Below are positions 202 to 42,556 of a DNA stretch of 43,329 nt, one piece after another. The stretch lies in IMG/VR virus record IMGVR_UViG_3300009156_000012, one strand, 5' to 3'. The notes under the pieces are model-generated. The model had not been told where the DNA came from and searched no databases. It saw only the letters and a list, made by a program, of their open reading frames with translations. The stretch comes from a virus. Numbering within the stretch: position 1 is the stretch's first letter; the number at the start of each line of letters is the position of its first letter. Position numbers and translations under genes: made by a program.

Positions 202-602
202 TCAGGGGATTTTACGCATTGGCAGTTGCGCTTGTGGCGGCATTGCTGGTCACGCTGGCCAGCACTCCGCTGCCGGTGCCTCGGCCGGTTGAAGTGTCCC
301 CGCAACCGGCCGAGCGCGAGCTGACCTTCGAGGAACGCTGGGAGCCGGTGCGGCGCATGCCGCCGATGATCCGGATGAACGAGCTGGAACCGCGCACCAT
401 CCCGGTGAAGACCATCTCGATCCGCGCCGAGCCTGCGGTCTATGTCGAGCCTGCCGAGCAGGTTGCGACAGCCGAGCCAATTCCAAAACCACGTCCGGCA
501 ATCAGACCCAAGATCGTCTTCCGGCCAAGGGACATCTGTGCCAGCCACGGCATGCACAAGCAAATCACGCGCGGCGGAAAGTCATGGCGTTGCCGAAGAT
601 GA
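198..602 (+). CDS. Membrane-anchored Pro-rich hypothetical protein (134 aa)
   Basis: Internal ATG at 198 overlaps the upstream stop. N-terminal hydrophobic helix FYALAVALVAALLVTLA, then a Pro-rich region. The ORF-track N-terminal extension is Arg-rich out-of-frame-like sequence. Confidence 0.65.
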   Translation: MIRGFYALAVALVAALLVTLASTPLPVPRPVEVSPQPAERELTFEERWEPVRRMPPMIRMNELEPRTIPVKTISIRAEPAVYVEPAEQVATAEPIPKPRPAIRPKIVFRPRDICASHGMHKQITRGGKSWRCRR

Positions 603-790
603 AGGAGAACTGGGAAAGGAAAAAACAAGCTTGGCTGCTGCGCGCTGAAGGAGCGACCTACAAGGAGATTGGCAGGCAACTTGGTGGAGTATCCCGCTCA
701 CGGGCATACCAGCTGGTTGGTCGCTTCGATCGTCAATTGAAACGCATGATCGAGCCGGAACGAGATGCCGCAATAGCGCAGGAAAAATGA
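584..790 (+). CDS. Small HTH DNA-binding protein (sigma-70 region 4 / LuxR-like helix-turn-helix)
   Basis: Sequence AEGATYKEIGRQLGVSRSRAYQLVGRF resembles a region-4 type HTH. An alternative start at ATG 599 forms an ATGA overlap with the upstream stop. Confidence 0.6.
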   Translation: MALPKMKENWERKKQAWLLRAEGATYKEIGRQLGGVSRSRAYQLVGRFDRQLKRMIEPERDAAIAQEK

Positions 791-815
791 GTGTTGCCAA
801 AAAGTGAGTATCAAC

Positions 816-3717: not shown

Positions 3718-5514
3718 TCACTCCGTTTCACCACGCAGCGCGCGTGCAGCCGAACCCGGACCATAGCGCCTCTCGAACATCTGTACTTCCTGCGGACGTG
3801 GCGCCCCGCCGAACCGCTTCATCTCATTAACGTCAGCCGGATCGAACTGGATCGGAACAGTATATTGCTGCAACGCCTTCTGGTCATATTGCGGATTGAA
3901 TGTCTCGCGCACCTTCCTGTTGTGATCTTGGATCATCCTGACTGCATCTTCGCGCAAGCCGTTCACGATCCGCTGCTGCGAGGAAAGATCGAGGTTCGGA
4001 TCCAGACCGATGGCCTTCGCGGCGTTCGCACCTTCCTTCTCGGTGACGTTGCCCCTGCCCGTCGTCATGGCCAGCATCTGGCCAACCAGCGGGTACAGCT
4101 TGGCATGCAGATGCTCGGTGTCGCGCACTTCTTCGGAAGCCCGCTGACTGCCAAAAGCCGATGCCACTTTCGACAGGGTCATTCCGCTCGGGAGCGGAAC
4201 ATTCCCGACGCCCGGGATGGGAAGGTTCACATCAGTGCCAATGCCAGCGATGATGTTTCTGCTGTTGAGCAGGCGCACCGCCTCGTTCACACGGTTCAGG
4301 TTGTCAGCCAGCATCTTGGCCTGATCCATGCTCTTGGCCGCGCGCTCGTTCGCCGCCTTGTAGTTCTCGGGCGACCTGAAGTCGCGATTGATCGCGGCCT
4401 CCCGAGCCTTCTCTTCCAGCTCGGACTGCTGCTTCGGCAATTGGCGAATGTTCTCGTCGTACTCCTTGCGCCGCGTGAGGATGTCGTCGCGCTTCTTCTG
4501 CCAGATCTCCTGCTGCTGGCTGTCGATCTTGTCGCGCCTTGCCTCCTCGCGCTTGTAGTCGGCTTCCAGCTCCGCGCGCGCTCTCTCGCCCAGACGATTG
4601 AGGTTCCTCGGATCGTCCAGCACCGAACGCAAGCGCTGCATTTCAGGTGTCGGAATGCCAACCTTCGGCTCGGGCGGCAACGCCTCGACCGGCTTGGGCA
4701 TGTTGATGCGAGCCCCGCCCGGCCCCAGCTCGGGACCCGGCTTGATCGGTGTCCCCTGCGGCGGGAACGGCCCGGGGGCAGGCGTTGGCGCAGGTCCCGA
4801 GCCCGGTTGGCCGCCGGGCATTGCCCCGGTTGGCCCGCCGGGTGGTCTTCCCGTCGGTGTCGGCCGAACCTCGACATTGCCACGCTGGCCAGCCTGCGCC
4901 AGCATGGTCGGGACCAGACTGTCGCGGCCTGCCGCGATCGACTGATCGGGAGAGGTAACGTCGGGACGCTCGGCGATCGTGGCGCCCGGACCTGCCGCTT
5001 GCGGCCCGCCATAGGTCGCGCCGGGCTGGCCAGCATCCGACACCGTGCCAGTGTCAAGGGCTGCCATCTGCAACAGCCCGGGGCGTTCAGCCGCCGTCTG
5101 CGCAATCGCGCTGCGTCCGGCATCGACTTCGGGCGGCATGTCTGCGCTGGCCAAGGAAGCCGTGGGCACCGGGGCCGATGGCATGTCGAGCAGAGCGCTG
5201 CCACCTGCAGGACCGGCGGGAGGGGTAGGGACTGCTGGCGGCGTAGCACCACGCCCCTTCGCGATCTGCGCCTCGTCACGCCTCTGCTGCGCGCGCTCGG
5301 CTTCCAGCAGCTGCCGGTCATAGAGCCCCTGCGTGATGCCCTCGGCCGCAGACGACAGACCCTCGCCGAACGTCTTCGGGTAAGGGCGCGAGCGTGAGGC
5401 AAGCGCTGCCGCAACAGCGCGGCGCGCCTTGAGCTGATCGATGGTCATGCCATTGGCGGCATCGGCCCAGAAGAAGTTCTGAACATTTGGATCAACGCCG
5501 GATGTGTCGGACAT
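3718..5514 (-). CDS. Internal virion / ejection-type structural protein (598 aa; Pro-rich centre, coiled-coil C-half)
   Basis: Position between the fibre genes. Low-complexity PG-rich core and charged helical region. No recognisable enzymatic motif. Confidence 0.6.
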   Translation of the reverse strand: MSDTSGVDPNVQNFFWADAANGMTIDQLKARRAVAAALASRSRPYPKTFGEGLSSAAEGITQGLYDRQLLEAERAQQRRDEAQIAKGRGATPPAVPTPPAGPAGGSALLDMPSAPVPTASLASADMPPEVDAGRSAIAQTAAERPGLLQMAALDTGTVSDAGQPGATYGGPQAAGPGATIAERPDVTSPDQSIAAGRDSLVPTMLAQAGQRGNVEVRPTPTGRPPGGPTGAMPGGQPGSGPAPTPAPGPFPPQGTPIKPGPELGPGGARINMPKPVEALPPEPKVGIPTPEMQRLRSVLDDPRNLNRLGERARAELEADYKREEARRDKIDSQQQEIWQKKRDDILTRRKEYDENIRQLPKQQSELEEKAREAAINRDFRSPENYKAANERAAKSMDQAKMLADNLNRVNEAVRLLNSRNIIAGIGTDVNLPIPGVGNVPLPSGMTLSKVASAFGSQRASEEVRDTEHLHAKLYPLVGQMLAMTTGRGNVTEKEGANAAKAIGLDPNLDLSSQQRIVNGLREDAVRMIQDHNRKVRETFNPQYDQKALQQYTVPIQFDPADVNEMKRFGGAPRPQEVQMFERRYGPGSAARALRGETE

Positions 5515-11598: not shown

Positions 11599-12390
11599 TC
11601 AAGTCCTCGCGTCCTCTGCCATGCGCAGCAGCGTCCTGATCGACGGATTGCCGATTGGCCGTTTGCCAGTGTTCTCGGTGATGTAGGCACGCAGCTGGTC
11701 GCTGTTCATGCCAACGAACTCCTCGCTCACATTGGCAGCCGCAACAACAACGCCGCTCAAATCGGCCCCGACACCATCCTCGCTTTCGGCTTCCTCTCCA
11801 TCATCATCCGGCGGCAACGGCAGTATCTCGTCGTGTTTCGGAGGGCTGGCCAGATACTGGCGTTCCTCCTTCATCACGCCAAGCTGCGCGGTGAGCGCTT
11901 CGATCTGCTGCTGCATGCGGATAACCACGGCATTGTGGTCGCTCGACGCAAGATAATCGGTGGCGAGGTTCTTCAGGTCGCGCCCGCCCATGCCAAGGTT
12001 CTTCAGCGGCTGGCCTTCCAGCTCGGCGAGTGCCTCGGCGGTATAGATCGAGAGCGCACGCAGCTCGGCGCGTTTGCCCTCGGTCAGGAATGGCAGGTAG
12101 TCGAGCGGCGTACCTTCCTTGGTCTGCGCCGTCTTCGCCTTGAACTGCTGATACTGCTTGGGCCAGCGTTCCGCATAGCTGACCCTGATCCGCTCGCCCG
12201 TTTCCTCATCCTCTTCGAAGTGCGAAAACTCGGTCGAATGGAAAACATAGACATCGCGTGATCCGGCAAAGCGGATCTCCACCACCTCGACGTCGTCGAA
12301 GATCGGTCGACCGGCTTTCGCGGTCTTGCCGGGGTTCTTCATCGCGATGTGCTTGAACAGCGGCGTGATGACCGCAGCCTGTCTGGCCAT
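11599..12390 (-). CDS. Hypothetical head/neck-module protein (263 aa)
   Basis: Well-formed ORF between the capsid and tubular-A-like genes. Acidic C-terminal third. Confidence 0.6.
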   Translation of the reverse strand: MARQAAVITPLFKHIAMKNPGKTAKAGRPIFDDVEVVEIRFAGSRDVYVFHSTEFSHFEEDEETGERIRVSYAERWPKQYQQFKAKTAQTKEGTPLDYLPFLTEGKRAELRALSIYTAEALAELEGQPLKNLGMGGRDLKNLATDYLASSDHNAVVIRMQQQIEALTAQLGVMKEERQYLASPPKHDEILPLPPDDDGEEAESEDGVGADLSGVVVAAANVSEEFVGMNSDQLRAYITENTGKRPIGNPSIRTLLRMAEDART

Positions 12391-12408
12391 GCCCTTCTCC
12401 TTGAATTC

Positions 12409-12437
12409 GGAGGCTGACCAAGTGCTGGCCAGCCTCC
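12409..12437 (-). terminator. Stem-loop immediately after the major capsid gene (attenuator/terminator candidate)
   Basis: GGAGGCTG (12409-12416) pairs with CAGCCTCC (12430-12437), with an inner CCA/TGG pair. No U-tract. Contains one GCTGGCCAGC copy. Confidence 0.45.
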
Positions 12438-12448
12438 ACGATCGATCG

Positions 12449-16185: not shown

Positions 16186-19047
16186 TCACTGTTGATAGCC
16201 ACTTTGGTCTGCAATGCTGCCAAGAGCGGCGCCACCTCCGATCACACCTGCGGCACCATACAACGGGATCTCGGCACGCACCAATCCGCGCCTGACGATC
16301 TCGTCACGCGGCATGCCGGTGATCCGATGCGTGCGCTCGATCGCCTCATTGACGATCTGGATCATCGGCTTGGCGGCAAAGCCACCCTTGGTCTTTTCAT
16401 CCTTGGCGCCAGCCCAAGCAACCTCCTGATAATAGCGCGGATCGACGCCAGCATTCTTCGCCGCCTGATGCACCACGTCCTCGAAGTGACCATACGATCC
16501 AGAAGGCGGCATCTGCAGAACCTTGCCCTTTTTATCCAAGGCTCCGATCAATCCCATCATCTGCTCGTCGATGGTCGCGCCCTTGCCATAGCCGGTGAAG
16601 TTGCCGGAAAAATTGTAGCGCTTCGGATTGATGGTCGGCGAGATGCCCTGTCCCTGCATAATCATCTTGTCGAACTGATCCATGTTCGATCCGGCATAAC
16701 GCCCGCCAATCGGGAACGGGAAGGCATGGCTCGGCGGGACCTGCTCGCCACGCGCCTTCAGCCAGTTGCCGTAATGCGCCATCATCAGGTTCGAGGTCGG
16801 ATCAGCGCCGCCGGTCGTTGCCGCCATGGCGTCGGCAAAGCGTTCCTTGAACATTGCACTGCCCTTCGTCGCGCCATACTCCTTGATGAATTCATCCTCC
16901 AGTTGTTTCATGAAGTACCAGTTCTCCGAGCCTGCCTTCTGCTTCAGGCCGCGCTCGTAGGCGCTGGCCAGCCTCGCCTTTGCTTCCGGCGTATTGGCCA
17001 TCTCTTCGTACTTCTGGCGCGTTGCCTCCTTGGCCGGGCGCACCACATCCTTTGTGCTCGTCATCGCGGGATAGTTCGCCGGATTGACGTCGGCACGCTT
17101 GGCCGGATCGAAGTAGGGCGTGTAGTTCCCGGCATCGATGTCGCGCTGCGCCGCCGCGCGCGCCTTCTGCACGCGCTGCGCCTCCTCGCTCAGCGTTTTT
17201 TGCGGGAACCAGTTCTCGGTCTTCGGATCGTAGGTGTTCACCGGAGGAATGACCTCCGGGTAGCGCTCGGCGACCTCGGGAACGGCACCAGAACGCGGCG
17301 CGACGGCTGAAGGGACAGACGGGGAACGCTTCCCGGGTGTCGCCATCTGCTGCGACTGACGCATCTCGCGCGGCACGGGATTGAGCACGCCGCCCATCTC
17401 GGCAAACGGCTCATTGAACTCGACGATCTGCTGCGAGGACGGGATCTTCATCTGCTTGATCGGATCGATCGCGTCGCGCTCGGCCTGAGTGAGATCCCTG
17501 CGCAGGTAATTGAGGTTCGCCCTGTTCTCCCCGGCACTGCGATTGTAGTTCGCAAGCGCAGCCTGATTGCGCGCGTACATCTCCATGACCTGACGCTGCG
17601 CCGGTCCCATCTTTGCCATCTCTGGCGCGAACTCCGTCATGATCTGCTTGTAGATCCCCTCGGCAGGCGAGCCGGGAGCAAAGTTGGTCGAGGTGTTCGA
17701 GCCGCGCGCGCCACCCTCGACAAAGTCGATCGCATGCTGCGGCTCATGCAGGCCCACCTCCAGCATCTTGCCGCGTGGCTTGTGCCTTCCGCCGGGGATC
17801 AGGACGCTCTCATCAACGTTCTGGCTCGGATTGATCGCCATGAACGGACGCTCGTGCTTGGTCGCTGGCGGATAATAAGCAGCACGCCATGAACCTTCAT
17901 TGTCGATGTAGACCGGCATGTCGCGCAGATAGGGAAACGCTTCGAGCGCGTCCGGGTGATCGTAGAGATCGGCCCACGTCAACGGTCCCTGTTTCTGGAT
18001 GCGCTCGGTCGCTTCCTGACGCGCCTTCAGCATCTCGGTGCGGTAACGAGCGCTGCCTTCCTTCGGCGGCTTGATGCCGGTCGTCTGCCCAAACAGATTG
18101 AGGCCCTGCTCGGGATTGTTCTCGCGGAAGATCTGCTGCGTGACCTTGTCGATGTCGTGACTGTCGGGCAGGCCTTTGAAGCGCGCATTCTGGTCCGACA
18201 CCTCGAAGTAGAACTTGCCATCGGGAAAGCGGCGCAGCTTGGTGGCCTGAAAGATCTGCTCATCGGAAAAACGCCCGCCCGCCCGCGCCATCGCTTCGGC
18301 GAGATCAAAGGCAGCCTGATCGGCCTTCGGCGACATGCGCGAGCCGAACATGCCTGCGCTGGCGCCGGGACGTGCATAGCCAGCAGGAGCGCCGCCGCCC
18401 ATCAAATTGAGCGCGGTATCGATGCCGAACTTGTCGAGCGCCTGCTGGCGCCTCATCTCGCGTCCCACCCGCTGCGAAGTGAGCGGCTCATTCGGATCGG
18501 GATAGCGGTCGAGGATGGAACGCTGCTCAACCGGCGGCGCGAACATTGCACCAGCAATCTGGCCAGCAGCTCGCAACGGTGCAGTGATCGGGCGCGTCGC
18601 ATACTCGAACGGGGTCTCTGCCGGTGGTTGTGTCGAGGCGAGGCCCGGGCGCGGGCGATCCGGGTCCCACGGCTGCGTCGGCTCGACGGCACGAGCGCCG
18701 CCGAACAAATGTCCCACAAGGCCGGGGCGATCGTAGCGCTCGCGCGCGGCGCGCGCCGCCGGAAGCTCGAAGCTCTCGCGATCGGGCTGCCCCGGCTCCT
18801 GCACCGTCGTCATGTAGCGGTTGCGAAGGTTCTGATCGATGGTCGCGGGGGCAGCGGTCGAACCCATGGCGGGGGAGAGATCCGGCTCGAACAGCCGCCC
18901 TTCCGGTCGACCGGCGGTGCCTCCCGGACGGCCCCATCCGGCGTCATCCGGGGGAGGCACCGGGATGTCGCTCGGACGCACCGTGATGCGCGGGATGCCA
19001 CGGCTCTGCAGCTCAAGATCGGTCAGCTCGTCATAGGGGTCAGGCAT
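16186..19047 (-). CDS. Large virion-associated protein with HExxH motif (953 aa), polyvalent/ejected protein candidate
   Basis: Contains LEVGLHEPQHAIDFVEG (HExxH). Lies right after the virion lysozyme and portal. No other motif recognised. Confidence 0.6.
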   Translation of the reverse strand: MPDPYDELTDLELQSRGIPRITVRPSDIPVPPPDDAGWGRPGGTAGRPEGRLFEPDLSPAMGSTAAPATIDQNLRNRYMTTVQEPGQPDRESFELPAARAARERYDRPGLVGHLFGGARAVEPTQPWDPDRPRPGLASTQPPAETPFEYATRPITAPLRAAGQIAGAMFAPPVEQRSILDRYPDPNEPLTSQRVGREMRRQQALDKFGIDTALNLMGGGAPAGYARPGASAGMFGSRMSPKADQAAFDLAEAMARAGGRFSDEQIFQATKLRRFPDGKFYFEVSDQNARFKGLPDSHDIDKVTQQIFRENNPEQGLNLFGQTTGIKPPKEGSARYRTEMLKARQEATERIQKQGPLTWADLYDHPDALEAFPYLRDMPVYIDNEGSWRAAYYPPATKHERPFMAINPSQNVDESVLIPGGRHKPRGKMLEVGLHEPQHAIDFVEGGARGSNTSTNFAPGSPAEGIYKQIMTEFAPEMAKMGPAQRQVMEMYARNQAALANYNRSAGENRANLNYLRRDLTQAERDAIDPIKQMKIPSSQQIVEFNEPFAEMGGVLNPVPREMRQSQQMATPGKRSPSVPSAVAPRSGAVPEVAERYPEVIPPVNTYDPKTENWFPQKTLSEEAQRVQKARAAAQRDIDAGNYTPYFDPAKRADVNPANYPAMTSTKDVVRPAKEATRQKYEEMANTPEAKARLASAYERGLKQKAGSENWYFMKQLEDEFIKEYGATKGSAMFKERFADAMAATTGGADPTSNLMMAHYGNWLKARGEQVPPSHAFPFPIGGRYAGSNMDQFDKMIMQGQGISPTINPKRYNFSGNFTGYGKGATIDEQMMGLIGALDKKGKVLQMPPSGSYGHFEDVVHQAAKNAGVDPRYYQEVAWAGAKDEKTKGGFAAKPMIQIVNEAIERTHRITGMPRDEIVRRGLVRAEIPLYGAAGVIGGGAALGSIADQSGYQQ

Positions 19048-19861
19048 ACCAGTCCCCGTCCTCGTAGGACGCGATGTCGCCGAGCGCTCCCATCTTGGCG
19101 CCCGGCAGCGAGCCGACAGCGTCCGAGCCCGGGGTCAGTGGGCTCGGAGCCGTCTCCGGGCGAGGGGAAGGCATTGGCACGATCCCGCCCGGAAAGGCTG
19201 GAGGCTGCGCCGCAGGAGGCGCTGACGCAGCCGTTCTCGACGGGCGAAAAGCCATGCTAAGCCCTTCGCCGAGCGTCTCGAGCCCGCCCCGGATGCCGCG
19301 CCGCTGCGAATTCAGCAGCCCGTATGGCCCGGACACCCCGGACACCCCGGACAGCCCATACCTGTCGTTCCGGTCACGTGTTTCACGTGAAACATTCCCC
19401 GGTGCAGATCCGGTCGCCTGCTGCGAAATTGCACCGGGTTCGAGAGGCTGGCCAGCATCTGCCTCGTAAAGAGCACGCGCGTGCTGCTGGCGCTCGGGCA
19501 GCGACTTGTCACCGAAGCGCACGACCTGATTGCCGAACGCCTTGGTCGCGGCATCGATGTCCTGCGCGGCATAGAAGTCCTGCGCGTTGCCACGCTCGGT
19601 CGTGCTCAGCTCATGCCCGATGAAATCGGTCTGCGCACCCGGATCGTTCCACGGCTTGCCCTGCTGGTTGGCGAAGTTCTGCAACGCCTGAAAGCGCGGC
19701 CCGCGCCACTGCATCATGCCATAGGCGCCTTCGTCGGAATTGTATGCGTTCGGATCAAGGCTGCTCTCGCGCTTCAGATTGCCGACAACTGCCGCAGCAT
19801 GCATCTTCGACATGCCGCCGCGCATCAGACGCTGCATCAGGAAGTTCGGATCGACGGGCAT
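19040..19861 (-). CDS. Phage tail lysozyme family (Phage_lysozyme2-like) cell-wall hydrolase
   Basis: AAAVVGNLKRESSLDPNAY...YGMMQWRGPRFQAL matches the family pattern. ATG at 19861 is preceded by GGAGGG; the track start at 19864 is TTG. Confidence 0.7.
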   Translation of the reverse strand: MPVDPNFLMQRLMRGGMSKMHAAAVVGNLKRESSLDPNAYNSDEGAYGMMQWRGPRFQALQNFANQQGKPWNDPGAQTDFIGHELSTTERGNAQDFYAAQDIDAATKAFGNQVVRFGDKSLPERQQHARALYEADAGQPLEPGAISQQATGSAPGNVSRETRDRNDRYGLSGVSGVSGPYGLLNSQRRGIRGGLETLGEGLSMAFRPSRTAASAPPAAQPPAFPGGIVPMPSPRPETAPSPLTPGSDAVGSLPGAKMGALGDIASYEDGDWYA

Positions 19862-26443: not shown

Positions 26444-27067
26444 TCAACTCCGCTCGCTCGGCATCAAAAGCCGCACACCATGCTCGGGACAGGTCAGCCG
26501 CCCGGCCGCCATCTGATCAAGCCGCACCTTGGCGACGAAGCCGCACTCCGGGCAGGCGACGTTGGTCATCTTGGGCGTCTTCTGCACCCGGAAGTCGACC
26601 GCCCGGCCATGGGTGTAGCGCCCCGCTGGAAGGGGTCCCAGTCGCGCCAGCGTGGCCGCCCAGAGGCGTTTGAACTCATCCCCTTCCGTTGTGGCCGTCA
26701 TCTTGCCGCGCAGCCCTGCGGCCGTCGCAAGCAGCCGGAACTCGCGCCCGTGCTTCACCTCGTGCGGCAGTGCGGCATGGCAAAGCTCATGCACGAGGAT
26801 CCCGGCCACGCGCACCGGGTCCGTCTCGGCCGACGTCACCCAGATCTCGCGCCCCTTGTCCTCGGTCACGTCGCCGGTCCAGCACAGGCCGATGGCGCGC
26901 ATCTTGCGGTGCGGCGGGCAGATCGCGGCGCGCAGGTTCCCCGGCAGGGGTGACCCGAGCGCGGCGAACGTGCCGCGCGCGTCGGCAATGAACTCGTTCA
27001 GCCACTGCTCGCGCGTGAGCTGGCCAGCTTGCGTCTTCTGCGTCTTGACAAGTGCGTTTTTCATCAT
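26444..27067 (-). CDS. SprT-like zinc metalloprotease with C-terminal zinc ribbon (207 aa)
   Basis: HELCHAALPHE (HExxH) plus CPECG...CPEHG. ATG-ATG at 27067 is preceded by GGAGAA. The upstream part of the track ORF is Arg/Gly-rich out-of-frame-like sequence. Confidence 0.7.
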   Translation of the reverse strand: MMKNALVKTQKTQAGQLTREQWLNEFIADARGTFAALGSPLPGNLRAAICPPHRKMRAIGLCWTGDVTEDKGREIWVTSAETDPVRVAGILVHELCHAALPHEVKHGREFRLLATAAGLRGKMTATTEGDEFKRLWAATLARLGPLPAGRYTHGRAVDFRVQKTPKMTNVACPECGFVAKVRLDQMAAGRLTCPEHGVRLLMPSERS

Positions 27068-29947: not shown

Positions 29948-29993
29948 GCTGGCCAGCGCTTGTTTCACGGCTGGCCAGCAAAGGCAAGGCCTT
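29948..29993 (-). promoter_or_regulatory. Class II promoter-like module upstream of the SSB-tail gene
   Basis: Minus strand reads AAGGCC-TTGCCT-N17-AACAAG-C-GCTGGCCAGC. A second GCTGGCCAGC lies inside the spacer (29970-29979). Confidence 0.4.
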
Positions 29994-31117: not shown

Positions 31118-31155
31118 GGGCAGTCCTCCGGTTTCCGGCCGCAGCCGGTACCGGA

Positions 31156-31190
31156 GTTAAATCAGGTTTTAACTCGTGTGGCAAGGCCTT
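31156..31190 (-). promoter_or_regulatory. Class I sigma-70-like promoter candidate
   Basis: Minus strand reads AAGGCC-TTGCCA-N17-TTTAAC. It aligns almost position-for-position with 33117-33151, including the downstream ACCGGCTG. Confidence 0.5.
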
Positions 31191-32435: not shown

Positions 32436-32752
32436 GCGTCACCCGCAGGCGTGACGGGCGTCAGCTTGCCTTCCTCACTGATGCTGTAGTTGACCGGATC
32501 GTCGCTCTCGGTCGCGCGCCAGTCGCGCACCGACGTCCAGCGCATCGACAGGTCCATCGCGCTGAGTTCGGCCTCGCGCTGGGTGGCGAAGCGCAGCGCG
32601 TTGCCGTACCATTTGCCAGTGTCGTCGGTGATCACTTCGGGTTTCCAGCTCATTGACCTTTCCTTTCCTGTGCTGAGCCCGACACCGTTGCAATCGTGCG
32701 GGCAATCAAATCGAGGGAGTTCCCAACCGCAGCGTGTGCAGCGCTTGCTCAT
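32432..32752 (-). CDS. Hypothetical protein with N-terminal Cys cluster (106 aa)
   Basis: ATGA overlaps at both ends. Sequence CTRCGWELPRFDCPHDC. Confidence 0.6.
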   Translation of the reverse strand: MSKRCTRCGWELPRFDCPHDCNGVGLSTGKERSMSWKPEVITDDTGKWYGNALRFATQREAELSAMDLSMRWTSVRDWRATESDDPVNYSISEEGKLTPVTPAGDA

Positions 32753-33078
32753 GCCTCACCTCCGCAGAACTCCTTGAACAGCTCGCGCTTGGAGAGGCCG
32801 AGATCCTCCCAGACGCCACGCGGCGCGGGCGTCGTCTTCTCGGCACGACGCACCACCTTGATGATCTGGTAGAACTCAACCCAGCGCTGGGAGAACAGGT
32901 CGCGCCGGTCCTCGTAGGCCTTGAGCTTGTCGGCGCTCGACAGCCGCCAGTCGTAGGCGCCCAGCTCGCGCTTGGCCTGCTCGGCCTTGCCCGCGTAGTG
33001 CAGCGCGGCGACGTTGATGCAGTCGAACAGGTCTTCGGCCTGCTCGCGGGTCAGCTCGATGGCGATCTTGTCAGTCAT
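32749..33078 (-). CDS. Hypothetical protein, first gene of the leftward arm (109 aa)
   Basis: ATG at 33078 is preceded by GGAGG plus 5 nt. The track start at 33114 has no RBS. Confidence 0.6.
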   Translation of the reverse strand: MTDKIAIELTREQAEDLFDCINVAALHYAGKAEQAKRELGAYDWRLSSADKLKAYEDRRDLFSQRWVEFYQIIKVVRRAEKTTPAPRGVWEDLGLSKRELFKEFCGGEA

Positions 33079-33116
33079 GGAAACCTCCGGGTTGCCGGGC
33101 TCAGCCGGTGTCAAGA

Positions 33117-33151
33117 GTTAAAACATGCATTAACAAGGAGTGCAAGGCCTT
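33117..33151 (-). promoter_or_regulatory. Class I sigma-70-like leftward early promoter candidate
   Basis: Minus strand reads AAGGCC-TTGCAC-N17-TTTAAC. Lies in the divergent intergenic region. Confidence 0.5.
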
Positions 33152-34987: not shown

Positions 34988-35521
34988 ATGAAACATCTCA
35001 TCTTCGACACCGAGACAACGGACCTGCTGGCCAGCAGCTCAATGTCGATCGAGCGCAAGCCGCACGTGATCGAGTTCGCCGCGATCCTGTGGAACGACCA
35101 GACCGGCGACGAGCAGGAGTTCGACTGGCTGTTCAATCCGGGCACCCCGATCAAGCCGAAGGCTGCGGAGGTGACGCGCATCACCGATGACATGGTGAAG
35201 GATGAGCCGTCCTTTTCCCACAGGGCGCCAGCGATCCGCGCGCTGCTCGTGCTCGCCGACGTCGTCGTAGCGCATAATCTGTTCTTCGACATGCATATGC
35301 TCGCGTGCGAGTTCAGGCGCGCCGACACGGCAGACGTCAAGTGGCCGAAGGGCATCTGCACGGTCGAGGCGACCGAGCACATTCTTGGGCGGCGCATGAA
35401 GCTCGCCGAGCTGCACCGCTACCTGTTCGCGGAGGACTTCCACGGCGCGCACCGCGCCATGGTGGACGTGCGCGCACTGCTGCGCTGCTATCGCGAGCTG
35501 ATCAAGAGGGGCGAGCTATGA
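34988..35521 (+). CDS. dnaQ: DnaQ-like DEDDh 3'-5' exonuclease (177 aa)
   Basis: Exo I FDTETTD, Exo II VVAHNLFFDMHML, Exo III HRAMVDVRAL. Confidence 0.85.
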   Translation: MKHLIFDTETTDLLASSSMSIERKPHVIEFAAILWNDQTGDEQEFDWLFNPGTPIKPKAAEVTRITDDMVKDEPSFSHRAPAIRALLVLADVVVAHNLFFDMHMLACEFRRADTADVKWPKGICTVEATEHILGRRMKLAELHRYLFAEDFHGAHRAMVDVRALLRCYRELIKRGEL

Positions 35522-35533: not shown

Positions 35534-35707
35534 ATGGCAATCGCACTTGAACCAAAGCAGAAGCTGATCGCGGCCTATGCACATCTGTGTCGCAACGTGC
35601 CGCAGGACGTGCTTGCCTCGATCATGGAGGTGAACCAAGCCCGCATCAATGAGGCGGTGCAGGCTGCCCGTCTGGCATTCGAGTTTCCCTCGAAGGAAAC
35701 CCCATGA
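35534..35707 (+). CDS. 57-aa helical hypothetical protein
   Basis: GGAG lies 7 nt before ATG 35534. ATGA overlap with the next gene. Hand translation begins MAIALEPKQKLIAAYAHLCRNVPQDVLASIMEVNQARINEAV... Confidence 0.45.
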   Translation: MAIALEPKQKLIAAYAHLCRNVPQDVLASIMEVNQARINEAVQAARLAFEFPSKETP

Positions 35708-35898: not shown

Positions 35899-38690
35899 GC
35901 GCACGCATCCGCACCGGCTACTCGTTCCGCAAGGCGGCAGGCCACCTCACCGCCGTCGCTGCCGTGCTCAAGGAGCAGGGCCGCACGCACGCGCCGATTA
36001 CCGACACGGCATCCACCTATGGGTGGGTGCAGTGGGATCGCATCGTGCGTGCCTCCGGGATGAAACCCTGCTTCGGTGTCGAGCTGGCCGTCTCGCACGA
36101 CATCAAGGCGAAGCGGCCGACAGTTGACTACTGGACTTTCCTCGCGCGAGATGATCTGCGGCCACTGCACGAGATCATCGGCGTAGCAACCGAGCAGTTC
36201 CGCTATGAACCGCTGCTGACCGTCGAGCAGGCGACAAGTGCCGCGTCCGCTCTCAACGTCATCATGGGGCATCGGAGTGCGGTCGCGGACATCGAGCCGC
36301 GACCGCATCTCTGGTTCGGTGTCGGCCCGGCGATCAGCATCGGGCAGATCCGCCGCGTGCTCAAGACCGCGCACCGCTTCGTCGCCGTCAGTGACAACCG
36401 CTTCCCGCGCGAGGGCGAGCGTTCGCTCTACGAGCTTGCCTGCGGCAGGCGCAGCGACACGCAGAGCTATCCGCAGTGGATCCTGAGCGATGATGAGTGG
36501 CGCATCAACATTGCAAACCATCTCGAAGAATTCAGCGGTGTTGCCTTCAGCGAGATCGCGCTCGACAACCGCGATGAGATCCTCGAAGCGTCCACCGCAA
36601 CGTTGCAGCGTGCCGAGATGGCGCATCCGGATCGTCCTTATGGACTGCTCGAAATGTGCCAGCTGGGAGCGCAGCGGCTCGGTATCGATCTCGGCCGTCA
36701 GCCCTACGCAGCACGTCTGCGGCGCGAGCTGGAGCTGATCGTTGCCAAGAAGTTCGAGGACTACTTCTACATGGTCGCCGACATCGTCAACGTCGCGCGA
36801 TCGAGCATGATGGTCGGGCCTGCGCGCGGATCGTCGTGCGGCTCGCTGGTCTGCTACCTGCTCGGCATCACATCGGTCGATCCGATCCCGTTCGGCCTGC
36901 TGTTCGAGCGCTTCATCGACGTCAATCGCGCCGACTTGCCCGACATCGACATCGACTTTTCCGAGCAGCACCGCGAGGTCATCTTCCGCTATGTGCGCGA
37001 CAAGTACGGCGCGCACCGGGTGGCGCGGCTCGGCACCGTCAACCTGTTTCAGGCGCGCTCCGCGCTGAAGGCCGCAGCGCTCGCGCTCGACATTCCGCCA
37101 TGGAGCATCGCAAGTGTTGCCGATCAGGCGGAAGCCGTCGGCATCGAGCAGGCGCTCAAGGGTCACCTGCTCGCGCGCACCTATCCCGAGCTTGCGCTCG
37201 CTGCCAAGCTCGAAGGCCACCCGAGCCATGCTGGCCAGCATCCGGCAGGCATCGTGATCACGGCAGGCGCCGTCTCCGACGTCGTGGCGATCGATCGCCG
37301 TACCGGCGCGACGATGTGCGATTACCGCGATGCCGAAGCGCTCAACCTGCTCAAGATCGACATGCTCGGCCTCACCCAGCTCTCGGTGTTCGAGGATGCG
37401 CTAGAGCTGGCCAATCTCGATCCCAAGGCGCTCGGCCAGCTCAATCCCTACAACGACCAGAAGGCACTGCACGTCATCAACAGCAGGCGCTATGCGGGCA
37501 TCTTCCAGTTCAACGGGCAGGCCCAGCAGAACCTTGCCAACCAGATCACCATCACGTCGATCGACGACATCGTGGCACTGACCGCGCTTGCCCGGCCCGG
37601 CCCGCTCGACAGCGGCGAGGCGCAGCGCTGGGTGCGCATCAGGCTCAACAAGGAGGCGCCGAGCTACATTCAGGAGTTATTCGAACCGATCCTGAAGCCG
37701 ACGCTGGGCGTCGTGATCTATCAGGAACAGATCATGCAGATCTGTCGCGCTGTTGGCATGAGCTGGGAGGACGTATCGTCGATGCGGCGCCTGATCAGCA
37801 AGAGTGCTGGCCCGGAAGCGCTCGACGCACATCGTGTCGTGTTCATTGGCAATGGCCTGAAAGCTGGCCTTCATCAGCTTGCTCTGGAGAATATGTGGGA
37901 CGTGCTGCGCGCTTCCGGCGCCTACTCGTTCAACAAGTCCCACGCGGTCGCCTACGGCATCATCTCCTACTGGTGCTGCTGGCTGAAGGCACACTATCCG
38001 CTGGAGTTTGCCGCAGCGACCTTGTCGCACGCCAGCGACGACACGCAGATCAAGCTGCTGCGCGAGCTGGAACGCGAAGGCATCGGATACGTCCCGGCCG
38101 ACAAGAATGTGTCGATCGACAAGTGGACGGTGGGGAACGTGAACGGACAGCGCAAGCTGGTAGGTCCGCTCTCGAACATCATCGGCATTGGACCGAAGCA
38201 TCAGGCCGCGATATTGTCGGCGCGTTCGCGCCCGATGGAGAAGCTTCCCGATCGCATCGGCAAGCTGCTGGCCAGCCCGCGCACCAAGATCGACAACCTG
38301 TATCCGGTGCGTACCGAGATCAACCGGCTCATGCCGGATCCAAAGAAGCTCAACATCACTTCGCATCCGATCGAGATCTCGAAGGTTCAGACCAACGGTG
38401 AGAAGCAGCTCGTGCTGGTTTTCGGTCGCGTCGATGAGCTGCGCGAGAAGATCGTCGATGGCATTCATTCGCTCAACCTGTGGATCGAGGACGACAGCGA
38501 TCGCATCTTCGCCAAGGTCGGGCGCTACGACTTCGATCAAATCGGAAAAGAGATCATGCAGCATGGCGAGGGCTACTATGCCCTCAAGGGCACCGTGCCC
38601 GCAGGCTTCCGCATGATCTGGATCGAGGGATATCGTTTCATCGGGGCAGGTCATGGAAAACAAGCCGACAAAAATCCAGACGCTGAATGA
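35895..38690 (+). CDS. dnaE: DNA polymerase III alpha subunit (DnaE-type C-family replicase, 931 aa)
   Basis: GPARGSSCGSLVCYLLGITSVDPIPFGLLFERFIDVNRADLPDIDIDF closely parallels the E. coli DnaE palm motif. Also HPAGIVIT and LKIDMLGL. Start ATG 35895 forms ATGA with the upstream stop. Confidence 0.9.
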   Translation: MSARIRTGYSFRKAAGHLTAVAAVLKEQGRTHAPITDTASTYGWVQWDRIVRASGMKPCFGVELAVSHDIKAKRPTVDYWTFLARDDLRPLHEIIGVATEQFRYEPLLTVEQATSAASALNVIMGHRSAVADIEPRPHLWFGVGPAISIGQIRRVLKTAHRFVAVSDNRFPREGERSLYELACGRRSDTQSYPQWILSDDEWRINIANHLEEFSGVAFSEIALDNRDEILEASTATLQRAEMAHPDRPYGLLEMCQLGAQRLGIDLGRQPYAARLRRELELIVAKKFEDYFYMVADIVNVARSSMMVGPARGSSCGSLVCYLLGITSVDPIPFGLLFERFIDVNRADLPDIDIDFSEQHREVIFRYVRDKYGAHRVARLGTVNLFQARSALKAAALALDIPPWSIASVADQAEAVGIEQALKGHLLARTYPELALAAKLEGHPSHAGQHPAGIVITAGAVSDVVAIDRRTGATMCDYRDAEALNLLKIDMLGLTQLSVFEDALELANLDPKALGQLNPYNDQKALHVINSRRYAGIFQFNGQAQQNLANQITITSIDDIVALTALARPGPLDSGEAQRWVRIRLNKEAPSYIQELFEPILKPTLGVVIYQEQIMQICRAVGMSWEDVSSMRRLISKSAGPEALDAHRVVFIGNGLKAGLHQLALENMWDVLRASGAYSFNKSHAVAYGIISYWCCWLKAHYPLEFAAATLSHASDDTQIKLLRELEREGIGYVPADKNVSIDKWTVGNVNGQRKLVGPLSNIIGIGPKHQAAILSARSRPMEKLPDRIGKLLASPRTKIDNLYPVRTEINRLMPDPKKLNITSHPIEISKVQTNGEKQLVLVFGRVDELREKIVDGIHSLNLWIEDDSDRIFAKVGRYDFDQIGKEIMQHGEGYYALKGTVPAGFRMIWIEGYRFIGAGHGKQADKNPDAE

Positions 38691-40887
38691 CGTTCCCTCG
38701 ATCGCAGCCTATCTGGCGCGCATCAATGCAAGGCCGCGATCGATCCGCTCGGCGGTGGTCGAGGAAGTGCATGGGCGCTACTGGAAGGACCTGCACGTCA
38801 TCCGGTTTCACCCGGGCGACAAGAAGCACCCGGTCAATGCGCCGGAAGAGCTGGCCCCGACAGATGCCGAGCTGGAGGCGATCCTCAAGGATATCGACAT
38901 CTATCAATGGCCAGCCTCGAAGCTCTTGGGCAAGGTCTACGAGCTGCCGACGCAGCTGAAGAAGGTTGACCCGGAGAACCTGTTCGAATTTCGCAACCGG
39001 GAAGGGCAGCTGGTCATGCTGCAGCAGCGCACCGAAGAAACCGATCGTGGCAAGTATCGCCCGTGGACGCCGTTCGACGACTACCTGTGGCGGATGTGCG
39101 AGCCGGACGGGCAGCTGCCGATCTGGGGCATGGAGCATCTCGGCGAGCACACCACCGTGTTCATCCACGAGGGTGCCAAGGCGGCGCGCGCAATGCATCG
39201 TCTGGTCAACCCGACAAACCGCGCGGGACGCGACCAGCTCGCGCGTCATCCATGGGGGCTCGATCTGGTCAATGCCGCACACCTTGGATGGATCGGCGGT
39301 GCGCTCAATCCTGACCGCACCAACTGGGTGGAGCTGGCCAAGTGCGGCGTCAAGCAGGCCTTCATCGTCGCCGACAATGACGCGCCCGGCCTCACTGCGG
39401 TCCCGACGATCGCGCGCTACCTGCAGGGCGTCACGGTCTTTCTGGTCCGCTTCAACCAGCTGTTCCCGCCGTCATTCGACATGGCCGACGAATGGCCCGA
39501 GCAATTCTTCATCGAGAAGGATGGCGAGCGGATCTATCAGGGGCCGACGTTCAACGACCACCTGCGCCCGGCAACGTGGGCAACCGATCTGGTCAAGGTC
39601 GGCAAGAAGAACGTCGCCAAGCTGCGCGACGAATTCAAGAAGTCTTGGGGATGGGTTTCCGAAGTCGACCTGTATGTCTGCCTGCAGCGTCCGACGCTGC
39701 GCTTTCCCGACAAGGTGTTCGAGGGGCACGTCGCCGCGTTCAGCCATCACAACAGCAAGGTCGCCGAGCTGGTGAAGCGCGATCTGGTCTGCCACTTCGG
39801 CAGGATGGCGTATCGTCCGGACAGGACGGAATTCATCATCGGCCATTTCGGCGAAGCAGCGACCATCAACCTGTTCACGCCATCCGGCATCACGCCATTG
39901 CCCGGCGACGCCACGCCATGGATCGAGTTCCTGACCTACCTGATCCCCGACAAGGAAGAGCGCCGCGAGATGATGCGATGGGTTGCGACGCTGATCGCAC
40001 GCCCCGACATCCGCATGAGCTATGCGGTGCTGATGGTGAGCGAGACGCAGGGCGTCGGCAAGAACACGCTCGGCGAGAAGATCCTCGCCCCCCTCGTCGG
40101 CATGCACAACTGCTCGTTCCCCGACGAGCAGCAGGTCGTCGACAGTCAGTTCAATTCTTGGCTTGTCAACAAGCGCTTCGCCTTCATTGCCGAGATCTAC
40201 AGCGGCAGGTCGTGGAAAGCGACCAACAAGCTCAAGAGCCACATCACCGATCGCACCGTCCACGTCAACGAGAAGTACATCAAGCCGCACGACATCGACA
40301 ACTGGATCCACGTCATGGCCTGCAGCAACTCGCTGCGTGCGCTCAAGCTCGACGCAACCGATCGCAGGTGGTTCGTTCCGACACTGACCGAGACGCCATG
40401 GCCGCGCGAGAAGTGGATCGCGTTCAATGAGTGGATCGAGGGCAACGGGCTGCGCATCATCCTGCACTGGGCCAAGCAGTTCGGGGACTACGTCAAGACC
40501 GGCGAGCACGCGCCGATGACCGAGCGCAAGGGCGTCATGCAGCGCGAGAGCGAGAGCGATGCGATGCAGCTGCTGCGCAGCTGGTGCGAGGCGAACGAGG
40601 ATATCCCGATCACTGTCGTCGAGCGCGCGATGCGCGACTTTCTCGAACGCTCGTCATCCGAGCGCAGGATCTACGAGAGCAGCACCGAGCTGCGCAGGAT
40701 CATGGCCAGCCTTGGATGGGAGACGTTCAACGAGCGGCTCAGGATTGACGGACTGAAGCAGTGGGTCATCATGTCGCCACAGGTCAGCAAGGAGCTGGCC
40801 AGCCTTCCTCAAGACATTGTCGTGCATCGCAAGTTCGTCCGCGCGACGATCAAGTTGCCGGTGGACAGCAAACAGGCAATGCTGTAA
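38653..40887 (+). CDS. Bifunctional primase-helicase (Toprim primase + D5/P4-alpha-type SF3 helicase, 744 aa)
   Basis: Toprim-like IHEGAKAARA and FIVADNDAPG. Walker A SETQGVGKNTLGEK and Walker B-like FAFIAEI. Overlaps the dnaE end by 38 nt. Confidence 0.8.
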   Translation: MENKPTKIQTLNDVPSIAAYLARINARPRSIRSAVVEEVHGRYWKDLHVIRFHPGDKKHPVNAPEELAPTDAELEAILKDIDIYQWPASKLLGKVYELPTQLKKVDPENLFEFRNREGQLVMLQQRTEETDRGKYRPWTPFDDYLWRMCEPDGQLPIWGMEHLGEHTTVFIHEGAKAARAMHRLVNPTNRAGRDQLARHPWGLDLVNAAHLGWIGGALNPDRTNWVELAKCGVKQAFIVADNDAPGLTAVPTIARYLQGVTVFLVRFNQLFPPSFDMADEWPEQFFIEKDGERIYQGPTFNDHLRPATWATDLVKVGKKNVAKLRDEFKKSWGWVSEVDLYVCLQRPTLRFPDKVFEGHVAAFSHHNSKVAELVKRDLVCHFGRMAYRPDRTEFIIGHFGEAATINLFTPSGITPLPGDATPWIEFLTYLIPDKEERREMMRWVATLIARPDIRMSYAVLMVSETQGVGKNTLGEKILAPLVGMHNCSFPDEQQVVDSQFNSWLVNKRFAFIAEIYSGRSWKATNKLKSHITDRTVHVNEKYIKPHDIDNWIHVMACSNSLRALKLDATDRRWFVPTLTETPWPREKWIAFNEWIEGNGLRIILHWAKQFGDYVKTGEHAPMTERKGVMQRESESDAMQLLRSWCEANEDIPITVVERAMRDFLERSSSERRIYESSTELRRIMASLGWETFNERLRIDGLKQWVIMSPQVSKELASLPQDIVVHRKFVRATIKLPVDSKQAML

Positions 40888-40897
40888 GGCCTTTTCA

Positions 40898-42556
40898 ATG
40901 ATCAGTATCATCATCGGTTCAGACAGTGCCGTTTTGTCCGGTCCCTATTACCAGCGTGGCCTGTCCTTTCTGCAAGGTCTGGAAGGGCGCAAGCATTGCG
41001 GTGTCGACCGGCTCACGTTCGAACCAACACCGCACAATCTGCGCATCGTGCGCGATAATTTCCCCGAGCTTGGGATCACCCCTGAAAATGTCAGCGAGCC
41101 CGCCTTCAAACGATCGCTGATCGGTCCTGCCTTCCGCATGCCGCCGCGCGACTATCAGCTGGAGAACTACGAGCGCTTCAAGGACGCGCCGGTCTGCGCG
41201 ATCTTCTCCGATCCCGGCACCGGCAAGACCAAGACCGCGCTCGACATCGTGTCCTACCGCTGGCATGCGTTCATGATCACGGGCGTGCTGATCTTCTCCT
41301 CGCCCAAGGGCGTGCATGCACAATGGGTGGAGGAACAGATCCCGCTGCACCTGTGGGAAAACGTCCCGGTGCAGGCCACCTACTGGCGCGGCAGCGCAGG
41401 CCCGGTGCCGAAGTGGCTTGCCTTTACGGCGCCGTGGAACGAGCTGCGCATCTTCTCGGGCAACATCGAGATGCTGATCAGCGATCGCGCGTGCATGATC
41501 CTCGAAATGTTCATGGCCGCGCACGGTGACATGCTGCTGATCATCGTGGACGAGAGCGACAGCATCAAGAACTTCAGTGCCAAGCGCTCGAAGAAGCTGC
41601 GCGAGCTGGCACACAAGCATGGCGTCAAGCAGCGCATGATCATGACCGGCACGCCGATCGCCAAGGACCTGACCGATGAATGGTCGCAGTTCTACTTCCT
41701 CAATCCGAACATCATCGGGCACAAGTACAAGACCAGTTTCCAGTCACAGTTCTGCATCATGGGCGGCTTCGAGAACCGCAACGTTGTTGGTCACCGCAAC
41801 ATCGAGCAGTTCAAAAAGATCACGGCACCGTTCATCTTCCGCGCGCGGAAGGAGGAGTTGAACCTGCCCGAGAAGGTCCATGACACCGTGCAGTTCGAAA
41901 TGACCGATGAACAGAAGCAGATGATCAAGGATATTCGCGATACCTGCATTGCCGTTCTCGACGTCGAGAAGGACAAGCGCGTGCTGGCCAGCACCTCTGT
42001 CGGCGCGATCCTGCGCATGCAGCAGATCTCCTGCGGCTTTGCCGTCGTCGACGGCGAGCGCGCGCACGAGCTGGCGAACCCGCGCATGGACGTTCTGCTC
42101 GACCTGCTCAACCAGCTCGGTGACCGCAAGGTGGTCGTCTGGTGCCGCTTCCGCCACGACGTCGAGGCGATTTGCCGGGCATTGCCGGAAGACGCGCACG
42201 TCAGGATCTACGGCCCATCATCCGCTGCCGAGCGCGTCGAGGCGAAGCGCTTTTTCATCGACGATCCGGAGACCCGGTATCTGGTCGCGACGCCGGACGC
42301 GGCGGGCAAGGGCATGGACGGGCTGCAGCACGTCTGTTCGACGGCGGTCTACTATTCCAACTCCTACAACGCCATCCTGCGCTGGCAGAGTGAGGATCGC
42401 ATTCACCGCATCGGTCAGCAGGGCACCGCGTCCTATTTCGACCTGATCGCACGCGGCTCGCCCGACAAGGCGATCCTGAAGAACCTGCGCAACAAGAAGG
42501 ACCTGTCGACCATCGTGCTCGACGACCTGCGGCGCATCATCGAGGGGAAGGATTGA
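40898..42556 (+). CDS. SNF2-family helicase/translocase (552 aa)
   Basis: Motif I DPGTGKTKTAL, II IIVDESDSIKN, III MTGTPIAKD, VI QSEDRIHRIGQ. The ATG at 40898 is in frame with the longer track ORF, whose N-terminus is Ser/Arg/Cys-rich and looks out-of-frame. Confidence 0.85.
   Translation: MISIIIGSDSAVLSGPYYQRGLSFLQGLEGRKHCGVDRLTFEPTPHNLRIVRDNFPELGITPENVSEPAFKRSLIGPAFRMPPRDYQLENYERFKDAPVCAIFSDPGTGKTKTALDIVSYRWHAFMITGVLIFSSPKGVHAQWVEEQIPLHLWENVPVQATYWRGSAGPVPKWLAFTAPWNELRIFSGNIEMLISDRACMILEMFMAAHGDMLLIIVDESDSIKNFSAKRSKKLRELAHKHGVKQRMIMTGTPIAKDLTDEWSQFYFLNPNIIGHKYKTSFQSQFCIMGGFENRNVVGHRNIEQFKKITAPFIFRARKEELNLPEKVHDTVQFEMTDEQKQMIKDIRDTCIAVLDVEKDKRVLASTSVGAILRMQQISCGFAVVDGERAHELANPRMDVLLDLLNQLGDRKVVVWCRFRHDVEAICRALPEDAHVRIYGPSSAAERVEAKRFFIDDPETRYLVATPDAAGKGMDGLQHVCSTAVYYSNSYNAILRWQSEDRIHRIGQQGTASYFDLIARGSPDKAILKNLRNKKDLSTIVLDDLRRIIEGKD

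Follow-up and report, generated by a model that had tools for sequence, protein, structure and literature searches.

A ten-base-pair palindrome multiplied across the genome of an uncultured tailed phage and maintained in its relatives

The IncP plasmid RK2 carries 12 OB sites, at which one dimeric protein, KorB, acts as a global repressor. Like the OB sites, the element that we describe here, GCTGGCCAGC, is an exact palindrome repeated around a mobile genome of ~40-60 kb. It was found in IMG/VR virus record IMGVR_UViG_3300009156_000012, a stretch of 43,329 nucleotides (the window in the following), which is the complete or near-complete genome of an uncultured tailed phage. Some OB copies are located directly upstream of a -35 element (PMC11790492), as are copies of the word in two relatives of the phage, T and L359, which are introduced below; other OB copies are far from any promoter. 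KorB is, however, a plasmid-encoded ParB-family CTPase, while no ParB-like domain was found in the open reading frames (ORFs) of the window. In addition, most copies here stand in coding sequence, made by the choice of codons or amino acids, and the element is a lytic-type phage. A second comparison is offered by the stoperators of the cluster A mycobacteriophages L5 and Bxb1, with more than 20 repressor-site copies genome-wide, some of which are promoter operators while the rest block elongation (PMC9283540; PMC6550527). Stoperators are asymmetric 13-mers, which are bound by monomers, oriented with transcription and placed in the short intergenic gaps of temperate phages. In contrast, our word is a perfect palindrome, genes contain 11 of its 15 copies, and neither an integrase nor a repressor was seen. 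It belongs to neither the OB nor the stoperator family.

Two further systems share the exactness and the density of the word. HIP1 (GCGATCGC) of cyanobacteria is a GC-rich palindrome, enriched tens- to hundreds-fold and selected within genes, with variants at the outer bases (PMC4390886; PMC5861425). It is a property of the host chromosome, tied to methyltransferases that recognise its core, whereas here a phage clade is the only place where enrichment is documented; searches of the window gave no methyltransferase, and none of the sampled bacteria is enriched. Chi sites and Chi-rich phages also offer a short exact word in any gene context, about one per 3-5 kb, which in proteobacterial Chi starts with GCTGG as it does here (PMC5959072; PMC12315714). 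Chi is asymmetric and strand-specific, while in the window only the symmetric 10-mer is enriched.

Over-representation of the word and selection on the DNA

GCTGGCCAGC is the most frequent 10-mer of the window, with 15 exact copies that start at positions 254, 4884, 5025, 12424, 16963, 19447, 27019, 28733, 29948, 29970, 35026, 37230, 38267, 40794 and 41983; the runner-up, an unrelated word, has seven. A sequence-only reading of this DNA had arrived at the same count and at 14 of these coordinates, giving 35025 in place of 35026. Dinucleotide shuffles expect 0.21 +/- 0.54 copies and never exceed 3; the expectation of an order-3 Markov model is 0.27. This corresponds to an enrichment of at least 50-fold under either null and agrees with the earlier rough estimate of well below one copy. 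The hexamer TGGCCA occurs 36 times and carries the full 10-bp flanks in 15 cases (42%), close to the half that had been estimated by eye, and the two additional CTGGCCAG cores reported at 11846 and 18559 are indeed present. Literature queries with the 10-mer and the 8-mer brought up nothing but primers and unrelated operators.

As a rule, palindromes are lost from phage genomes. The window follows this rule in the extreme for restriction-type palindromes, given here as observed/expected: CCGCGG 0/34, GAGCTC 0/16, GCCGGC 1/47, ACGCGT 0/15, ACCGGT 0/12, GTGCAC 0/13, CTCGAG 1/18, CGTACG 0/9 and GGGCCC 0/9. GANTC is absent against ~148 expected, and CCWGG is absent as well. It is against this purging background that an actively accumulated palindrome stands out.

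Eleven copies are located in genes, where six are read as Leu-Ala-Ser (G-CTG-GCC-AGC) and five as Ala-Gly-Gln (GCT-GGC-CAG-C), just as had been proposed from the letters; the Trp-Pro frame is used by none. The copy at 254 has been corrected to coding (T-L-A-S-T, in an ORF that starts with the ATG at 198). The other four copies, at 12424, 28733, 29948 and 29970, had been taken as non-coding and are intergenic in the present gene calls, against 1.0 expected (P=0.016). For the 11 coding copies, a synonymous-codon shuffle within genes expects 0.62 and a codon-order shuffle 0.27, while a codon-pair Markov chain, conditioned on the protein sequences and trained on this genome with the copies included, expects 1.32. 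None of 1000 codon-aware simulations reached 11 copies, so that chance, which was to be checked with just such shuffles, is rejected.

The codon argument of the sequence-only reading fared less well in its details. It had counted seven of eight AGQ tripeptides with GCT, which it regarded as a minor Ala codon; our gene calls give six of eight as GCT-GGC-CAG. GCT is a minor codon overall (10.8% of Ala codons), but in front of GGC its use largely follows from the avoidance of GCCGGC, a NaeI-type site. Among Ala-Gly codon pairs GCT-GGC ranks first (27 of 112), because GCC-GGC would create this purged hexamer. All five AGQ tripeptides that are followed by a codon starting with C carry the full word, and the LAS tripeptide is three-fold over-represented (17 versus 5.4 expected). 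One could regard the word as a by-product of codon usage and restriction-site avoidance that has no function, since CTG, GCC, AGC, GGC and CAG are all preferred codons and GCT-GGC is favoured through the purging of GCCGGC. The codon-pair expectation of 1.3 against 11 copies, the four intergenic copies and, as described below, exact conservation amid diverged flanks and the creation of copies by amino-acid replacement contradict this explanation, and we regard it as effectively rejected. The claim that selection acts on the DNA word and not on the protein is upheld by the codon- and codon-pair-aware nulls, by conservation in relatives and by word-creating replacements.

The enrichment belongs to the symmetric unit. 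When the palindromes are subtracted and codon usage is respected, bare TGGCCA is found 21 times versus 21.6 expected. The 8-mer half-extensions GCTGGCCA and TGGCCAGC occur outside the palindrome 6 times versus 2.2-2.6 and 5 times versus 2.8-3.9 expected, meaning that they are barely or not enriched, whereas the symmetric 10-mer reaches 10-11 versus 0.6-1.3. Only two one-mismatch variants exist, each altered at the outermost base, and for exact and one-mismatch copies together ~4 are expected by chance. Beyond the word, A is the flanking base at 13 of the 30 half-sites (P=0.0017). Judged by these counts, the selected unit is a symmetric site, strict over a core of 8-10 bp and softer over a 12-bp periphery. 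Protein sites typically show this combination, and the symmetry favours a dimeric reader of double-stranded DNA over an asymmetric signal read on one strand, such as Chi.

This bears directly on the proposal that the word is a bidirectional, Chi-like self signal, whose copies would modulate a helicase-nuclease (RecBCD/AddAB of the host or a phage enzyme) or another DNA-tracking machine arriving from either end, and would thereby protect replicating or packaged phage DNA or stimulate recombination. The benefit of a copy does appear to be independent of location and orientation, the density is Chi-like, and the word begins with GCTGG like Chi of E. coli (GCTGGTGG) and of Pseudomonas (GCTGGCGC; PMC5959072). 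Chi-rich phages exist (PMC12315714), and this phage encodes UvrD- and SNF2-type helicases, a VRR-NUC-like nuclease and an exonuclease. Known Chi sites are, however, asymmetric and read on one strand, and here the half-words are barely or not enriched; none of the Chi words known from E. coli, Pseudomonas, Bacillus, Lactococcus and Staphylococcus exceeds its expectation in the window, and the conserved promoter positions described below stay unexplained. The Chi-like option is weakened by these data, and we consider it decidedly unlikely.

Conservation and turnover in related phages

A scan of viral contigs for two copies within 30 bp led to contigs that are ~82-85% identical to the window. One of them, R (IMGVR_UViG_3300009157_000026, with pieces including L144/L225/L145), is assembled to 40.4 kb of 44.8 kb and shows ~83% nucleotide identity. 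D (L146/L001, 26.5 kb) is more distant, with 70-75% amino-acid identity. T (IMGVR_UViG_3300044742_000159, 21 kb) has a polymerase that is 58% identical, and L359 is a 43-kb Logan contig of which 17 kb were examined.

R contains 11 copies versus 0.30 expected. Of the 12 window copies that can be aligned, nine are exactly kept, compared to 26% of all aligned 10-mers (P=5e-4), and the flanks of conserved copies are often strongly diverged, as for those at 40794 and 19447. R also has a full copy at the position where the window shows TCTGGCCAGC, plus one copy without a counterpart in the window; these gains and losses indicate turnover under a maintained total. The individual copies are listed here with their window coordinates and the strand of the gene or feature concerned; full copies are numbered or named after their promoter-like region, and near-copies match at 9 of 10 positions.

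Copy 1, 254..263: coding, ACG CTG GCC AGC (T-L-A-S, then T), ORF 198-602 (+) with ATG at 198; R has ACTGGCCAGT, with two synonymous differences
Copy 2, 4884..4893: coding, GCT GGC CAG C (A-G-Q-R), in a tail-region gene for 598 amino acids, 3718-5514 (-)
Copy 3, 5025..5034: coding, A-G-Q-P, in the same gene 3718-5514 (-)
Near-copy GCTGGCCAGA, 11845..11854: the Tyr codon in Y-L-A-S blocks full extension; R is identical here
Copy 4, 12424..12433: intergenic, 3' of the major capsid gene, forming the 5' arm of a 13-bp RNA hairpin, 12408-12438 (-); R has ACTGGCCAGC
Copy 5, 16963..16972: coding, R-L-A-S, in a virion-region gene for 953 amino acids, 16186-19047 (-)
Near-copy TCTGGCCAGC, 18558..18567: A-G-Q-I context; R has the full word at this position
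Copy 6, 19447..19456: coding, A-G-Q-P, in the tail-lysozyme gene 19040-19864 (-); exact in R
Copy 7, 27019..27028: coding, A-G-Q-L, near the start of the SprT-like gene 26444-27160 (-); kept in R, N-E-P in D
P1 copy, 28733-28742: intergenic, in promoter-like region P1, 28705..28781 (-), upstream of the UvrD-type helicase gene
P2 copy after the hexamer, 29948-29957: intergenic, directly after AACAAG, in promoter-like region P2, 29921..29996 (-)
P2 copy in the spacer, 29970-29979: intergenic, at the spacer position after TTGCCT, in P2, 29921..29996 (-)
Copy 11, 35026..35035: coding, L-L-A-S, in the DnaQ-like exonuclease gene (+); kept in R, L-S-A-G in D
Copy 12, 37230..37239: coding, H-A-G-Q-H, in the DnaE-type DNA polymerase gene (+); kept in R, D and T
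Copy 13, 38267..38276: coding, L-L-A-S, in the DNA polymerase gene; in the window only, with L-L-A-N in R and L-L-A-R in D
Copy 14, 40794..40803: coding, E-L-A-S, near the end of the primase/DUF5906 gene; kept in R amid strongly diverged flanks, E-L-A-N in D
Copy 15, 41983..41992: coding, V-L-A-S, in the SNF2 helicase gene; kept in R, ACTGGCCAGC in T

In D, three copies were found versus 0.24 expected. The comparison with D also reveals that the word was created by amino-acid replacement, with N or R becoming S at 38267 and 40794 and NEP becoming AGQ at 27019. Selection for the DNA word has thus overridden weakly constrained protein positions. T has five full copies and nine cores in its 21 kb, and L359 two full copies and three cores in the 17 kb. 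Variants affect the outer positions (TCTGGCCAGC and GCTGGCCAGA in the window, ACTGGCCAGC and ACTGGCCAGT in R, similar forms in T), although the numbers are small. Phages with just the portal or just the polymerase family in common are not generally enriched; Rhizobium phage RHph_I3_18 has one copy and Brucella phage Tb none.

For the copy at 37230, the word is present at about the same place, ~+1350 nucleotides into the DnaE polymerase gene, in several distant phages (L191-L193, L153, L176, L181), some of which have a GC content of only 40%. If the sites are homologous, conservation of the protein may explain part of the persistence of this copy. Another distant phage (L178, IMGVR_UViG_3300049733_000144, 22.8 kb; DnaE polymerase 44% identical) has six CTGGCCAG cores versus ~0.6 expected, with different, CCTGGCCAGG-like outer bases. 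Based on this phage, the core may be targeted recurrently, with flanks that are specific to the lineage.

The sets of purged palindromes differ within the clade. R additionally purges CTGCAG, GGATCC and GTCGAC, while D retains GAWTC and GCCGGC, which suggests that restriction landscapes or hosts differ between them. The word is missing from several GANTC-free phages, and across related loci the avoidance of GANTC showed no significant correlation with it (Spearman -0.22, P=0.12).

Promoter-like regions and a possible global operator

Three of the four intergenic copies are found inside two conserved promoter-like regions on the minus strand. Both regions have a common layout, consisting of AAAGGCCTTGCCTTT, 22 nucleotides that end with (G/A)ACAAG(A/C), the word GCTGGCCAGC, a common leader CTGGCGCAACCCGGAGAACC and the start codon.

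P1, 28705..28781 (-): AAGGCCTTGCCTTT, 22 nucleotides ending GACAAGA, GCTGGCCAGC, leader CTGGCGCAACCCGGAGAACC and ATG, before the UvrD-type helicase gene
P2, 29921..29996 (-): two copies of the word 22 bp apart centre to centre, with the leader CTGGCGCAACCCGGAGAACC as in P1, before a gene for 231 amino acids

The P1 copy and its architecture are kept in the window, R/L119, L354 and D. In R the P2 pair is retained with its 22-bp spacing, while five of the 12 bases between the copies differ, and the second promoter of D reads GCTGGCCATC. The promoter-like regions of T and L359 differ from those of the window and are nearer to consensus: here the word either abuts the -35 element (GCTGGCCAGC-N-CTTGAC/CTTGTC-N17-TTATAT) or lies in the spacer (TTGTCA-atat-GCTGGCCAGC-cc-TTATCT). 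Altogether, the word is present at promoter-like regions in five related lineages at varying positions, abutting the -35, in the spacer or just after the -10. This recurrence in varying registers, but always within the footprint of the polymerase, argues for an element like a repressor operator and against a core element or an activator site at a fixed position.

The same data speak to the idea that the word acts in RNA or as part of a core signal, as a hairpin arm, a processing or dimerisation site, or a piece of a promoter or terminator. The copy at 12424, which the sequence-only reading had placed in a post-capsid hairpin, is indeed the 5' arm of such a 13-bp structure after the capsid gene, and three copies are in promoter-like regions. 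The other copies have no partner arm, and the word alone cannot fold stably. Furthermore, its register relative to the -35 and -10 elements varies between lineages, so that it is not a fixed core element, and the 11 mid-gene copies have no shared flanks. We think that a role of this kind is highly improbable.

We favour, with moderate confidence, the reading that GCTGGCCAGC is the operator of a symmetric (dimeric), highly specific DNA-binding regulator, whose sites have been multiplied genome-wide. The promoter copies would be operators at positions that RNA polymerase has to cover (next to the -35, in the spacer and over the predicted start), where a bound dimer would most simply repress. The P2 pair, whose 22-bp distance is about two helical turns, could allow cooperative binding on one face of the helix. 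Selection has been strong enough to fix codons and amino-acid replacements, and this implies that each extra copy is useful wherever it is located. The most economical use of the intragenic copies would be as additional loading, roadblock or reservoir sites for the same protein, and the whole set would then form a global operator like the OB sites of RK2 or the cluster A stoperators. Among the three options offered by the sequence-only reading, a protein-binding site is the one that the data support best; a candidate for the binder did not emerge from the window. If a regulator does bind, this lytic-type phage would have a plasmid-like global operator, and with it an entry point to the regulation of a clade in which the functions of all early genes are unassigned. 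The site is short and exact and is easily tested in vitro.

Several observations weigh against a regulator of this kind. Sites of transcription factors are usually degenerate and are not driven into coding sequence, and the genome looks lytic, which leaves silencing in the manner of stoperators without an obvious place. A scan for the sigma-70 consensus gave no site in the early region at 25-36 kb. Of what had been said about the promoter copies, that they follow a -10-like hexamer at 28733 and 29948 and lie in a spacer at 29970, the architecture is conserved, while the scan does not bear out the status of P1 and P2 as promoters, which we infer from conservation and position. Additionally, searches of Pfam, PHROGs, NCBIfam and PDB sequences detected no helix-turn-helix, ribbon-helix-helix, ParB, methyltransferase or nuclease-specificity domain in any ORF, which is the chief weakness of the operator reading. 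Three candidate binders were considered and set aside. The ORF for 57 amino acids at 35534-35707, which is 96% conserved with R and absent from D, gave a two-helix model with no informative structural match and has only two homologues. A family of early proteins of 82 amino acids is common to all enriched lineages, but it is also present in L360, a phage without the word. For the protein of 231 amino acids, encoded directly behind P2 in R, the confident model matches only uncharacterised phage proteins and has no PDB relative. Finally, the lineages with the word have few early genes in common, which means that a host-encoded factor fits at least as well as a phage-encoded one.

Alternatively, the word could be an orientation-free, genome-wide "self" tag of this phage clade, a palindromic counterpart of Chi and uptake sequences. 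A phage- or host-encoded machine would then tell phage DNA from host DNA anywhere on the molecule, either for protection from nucleases or for recruiting replication, recombination or transcription, and the promoter copies would be only one use of it. Selection for the number of tags would in that case be strong enough to change codons and amino acids, and this in a genome from which palindromes are otherwise removed. We judge such a tag to be unlikely. Selection here builds and keeps one palindrome, in genes and at promoters, across several uncultured lineages.

Some features of the early region were recorded alongside the word. The first early gene, 32749-33114 (-), belongs to the highly conserved ~82-amino-acid family, with the invariant motifs ED.FD..N.A.L.Y and RRD.F..RW.EF and no Pfam match; the phages that carry this family differ in their replication modules, so its target is probably a conserved host protein. 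The protein of 231 amino acids (28947-29642, -) has an invariant CxxC..HH..C motif, an AlphaFold predicted local distance difference test (pLDDT) score of 90 and more than 240 homologues in its family, some of them in Bradyrhizobium chromosomes. Between its gene and P1 there is a gene-free stretch of 240 nucleotides, 28705-28946, with the strong hairpins GAGATGTCC...GGACATCTC and GGTGCG...CGCACC. These are kept in L119 and L354 and have no Rfam match, and by these features the stretch may encode a small RNA.

A second palindrome, AAGGCCTT, occurs 10 times versus 0.7 expected. In the window, R and D it is mainly confined to the -35 regions of early promoters, and T lacks it. Its sites at 28771, 28793, 28940, 29986, 31183, 33144 and 33157 are mostly intergenic. 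It appears as AAAGGCCTTGCC at the -35 position of early promoter-like regions, and some pairs are 13 or 22 bp apart. There is also a second class of early promoter-like regions, at 31140-31190 and 33100-33150 (-), with the layout AAGGCCTTGC(C)-N6-8-TTAAA-N6-TTTAAC, in which an inverted repeat overlaps the -10 position. This class is kept in R and D and is CtrA-box-like, but with N8 instead of N7. A reading as sigma-54 or CtrA boxes was discarded because the spacing, inspected by eye, does not fit: TTAAA-N6-TTTAA equals TTAA-N8-TTAA and not N7.

Host background and genome setting

The host of the phage is probably an alphaproteobacterium, as judged from the relatives of its portal, from Bradyrhizobium homologues of one early protein and from the scarcity of GANTC, which is under-represented in related phages and in sampled alphaproteobacterial replicons. 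We sampled ten 50-kb pieces of alpha- and betaproteobacterial replicons with 59-69% GC (Bradyrhizobium, Sinorhizobium, Rhizobium, Methylorubrum, Nitrobacter, Azospirillum, Ralstonia and Cupriavidus) together with a contig of a Bradyrhizobium metagenome-assembled genome that carries a related portal gene. The 522 kb contained three copies of the word, as a Markov model predicts, and a density 60-fold below that of the window. The possibility that the word is no commoner here than in other GC-rich genomes, raised as a counter-test by the sequence-only reading, is thus not what we find. In a scan of metagenomes for close pairs, covering at least 120 contigs, none of the matches listed had more than four copies or a HIP-like density, which is weak evidence; the pair spacings in these contigs are multiples of 3, pointing to coding coincidences.

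These samples bear on the suggestion that the word is HIP1-like, that is, hyper-abundant in the host chromosome through an orphan methyltransferase, a repair bias or an uptake or recombination signal, with the phage mirroring or exploiting it. Neither the candidate-host replicons nor the listed metagenome contigs gave it support, although both samples are small. A HIP1-like word would also leave the conserved promoter placement and the 22-bp phasing unexplained. It would fit the exact copies with one-base variants only at the first and last positions (cf. PMC4390886), the selection at the codon level and the density of ~1 copy per 3 kb. It would likewise fit that the word is common to lineages with different early genes and that domain searches of the window ORFs found no phage-encoded binder. 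Moreover, T has more copies than D, although D is the closer of the two to the window by polymerase identity, and this suggests that copy number depends on ecology or host. Taking both sides together, we regard a HIP1-like origin as doubtful. Should the word nevertheless prove to be a signal linked to the host or to a nuclease, the class of Chi, HIP and uptake sequences would gain a new, palindromic member, and the word would serve as a sequence marker for host prediction.

The capsid gene of the window is found on two metagenome contigs of 43,186 and 43,335 bp (ENA ERZ27258587, ERZ27258601). The window has a GC content of 62%. Minus-strand genes occupy ~1.5 to 33.1 kb, followed by plus-strand genes at 33.3 to 43 kb. 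By PHROGs and Pfam matches, the structural genes include the portal, major head protein, large terminase, tail proteins and tail lysozyme, and the replication genes the DnaE-type polymerase, a separate DnaQ-like exonuclease, the DUF5906 primase/helicase and the SNF2 and UvrD helicases; a VRR-NUC-like nuclease is encoded as well. Domain and profile searches of the window detected no integrase or repressor, in line with the lytic appearance, and scans of the window with Rfam and for tRNAs were empty. A megablast search with 20 kb of the window gave no match among cultured phages. Cultured relatives are distant and visible at the protein level only, through the portal of Brucella Tb-like and Rhizobium phages (36% identity to Brucella phage Tb and 50% to a Rhizobium phage) and through DnaE-type polymerases of at most 35% identity. 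Finally, the ORF for 82 amino acids at 23553-23801 (-) matches the Acb2/Tad1 hairpin domain (Pfam PF24729, E 1.5e-9), a family of cyclic-nucleotide sponges that counter CBASS and Thoeris defence.

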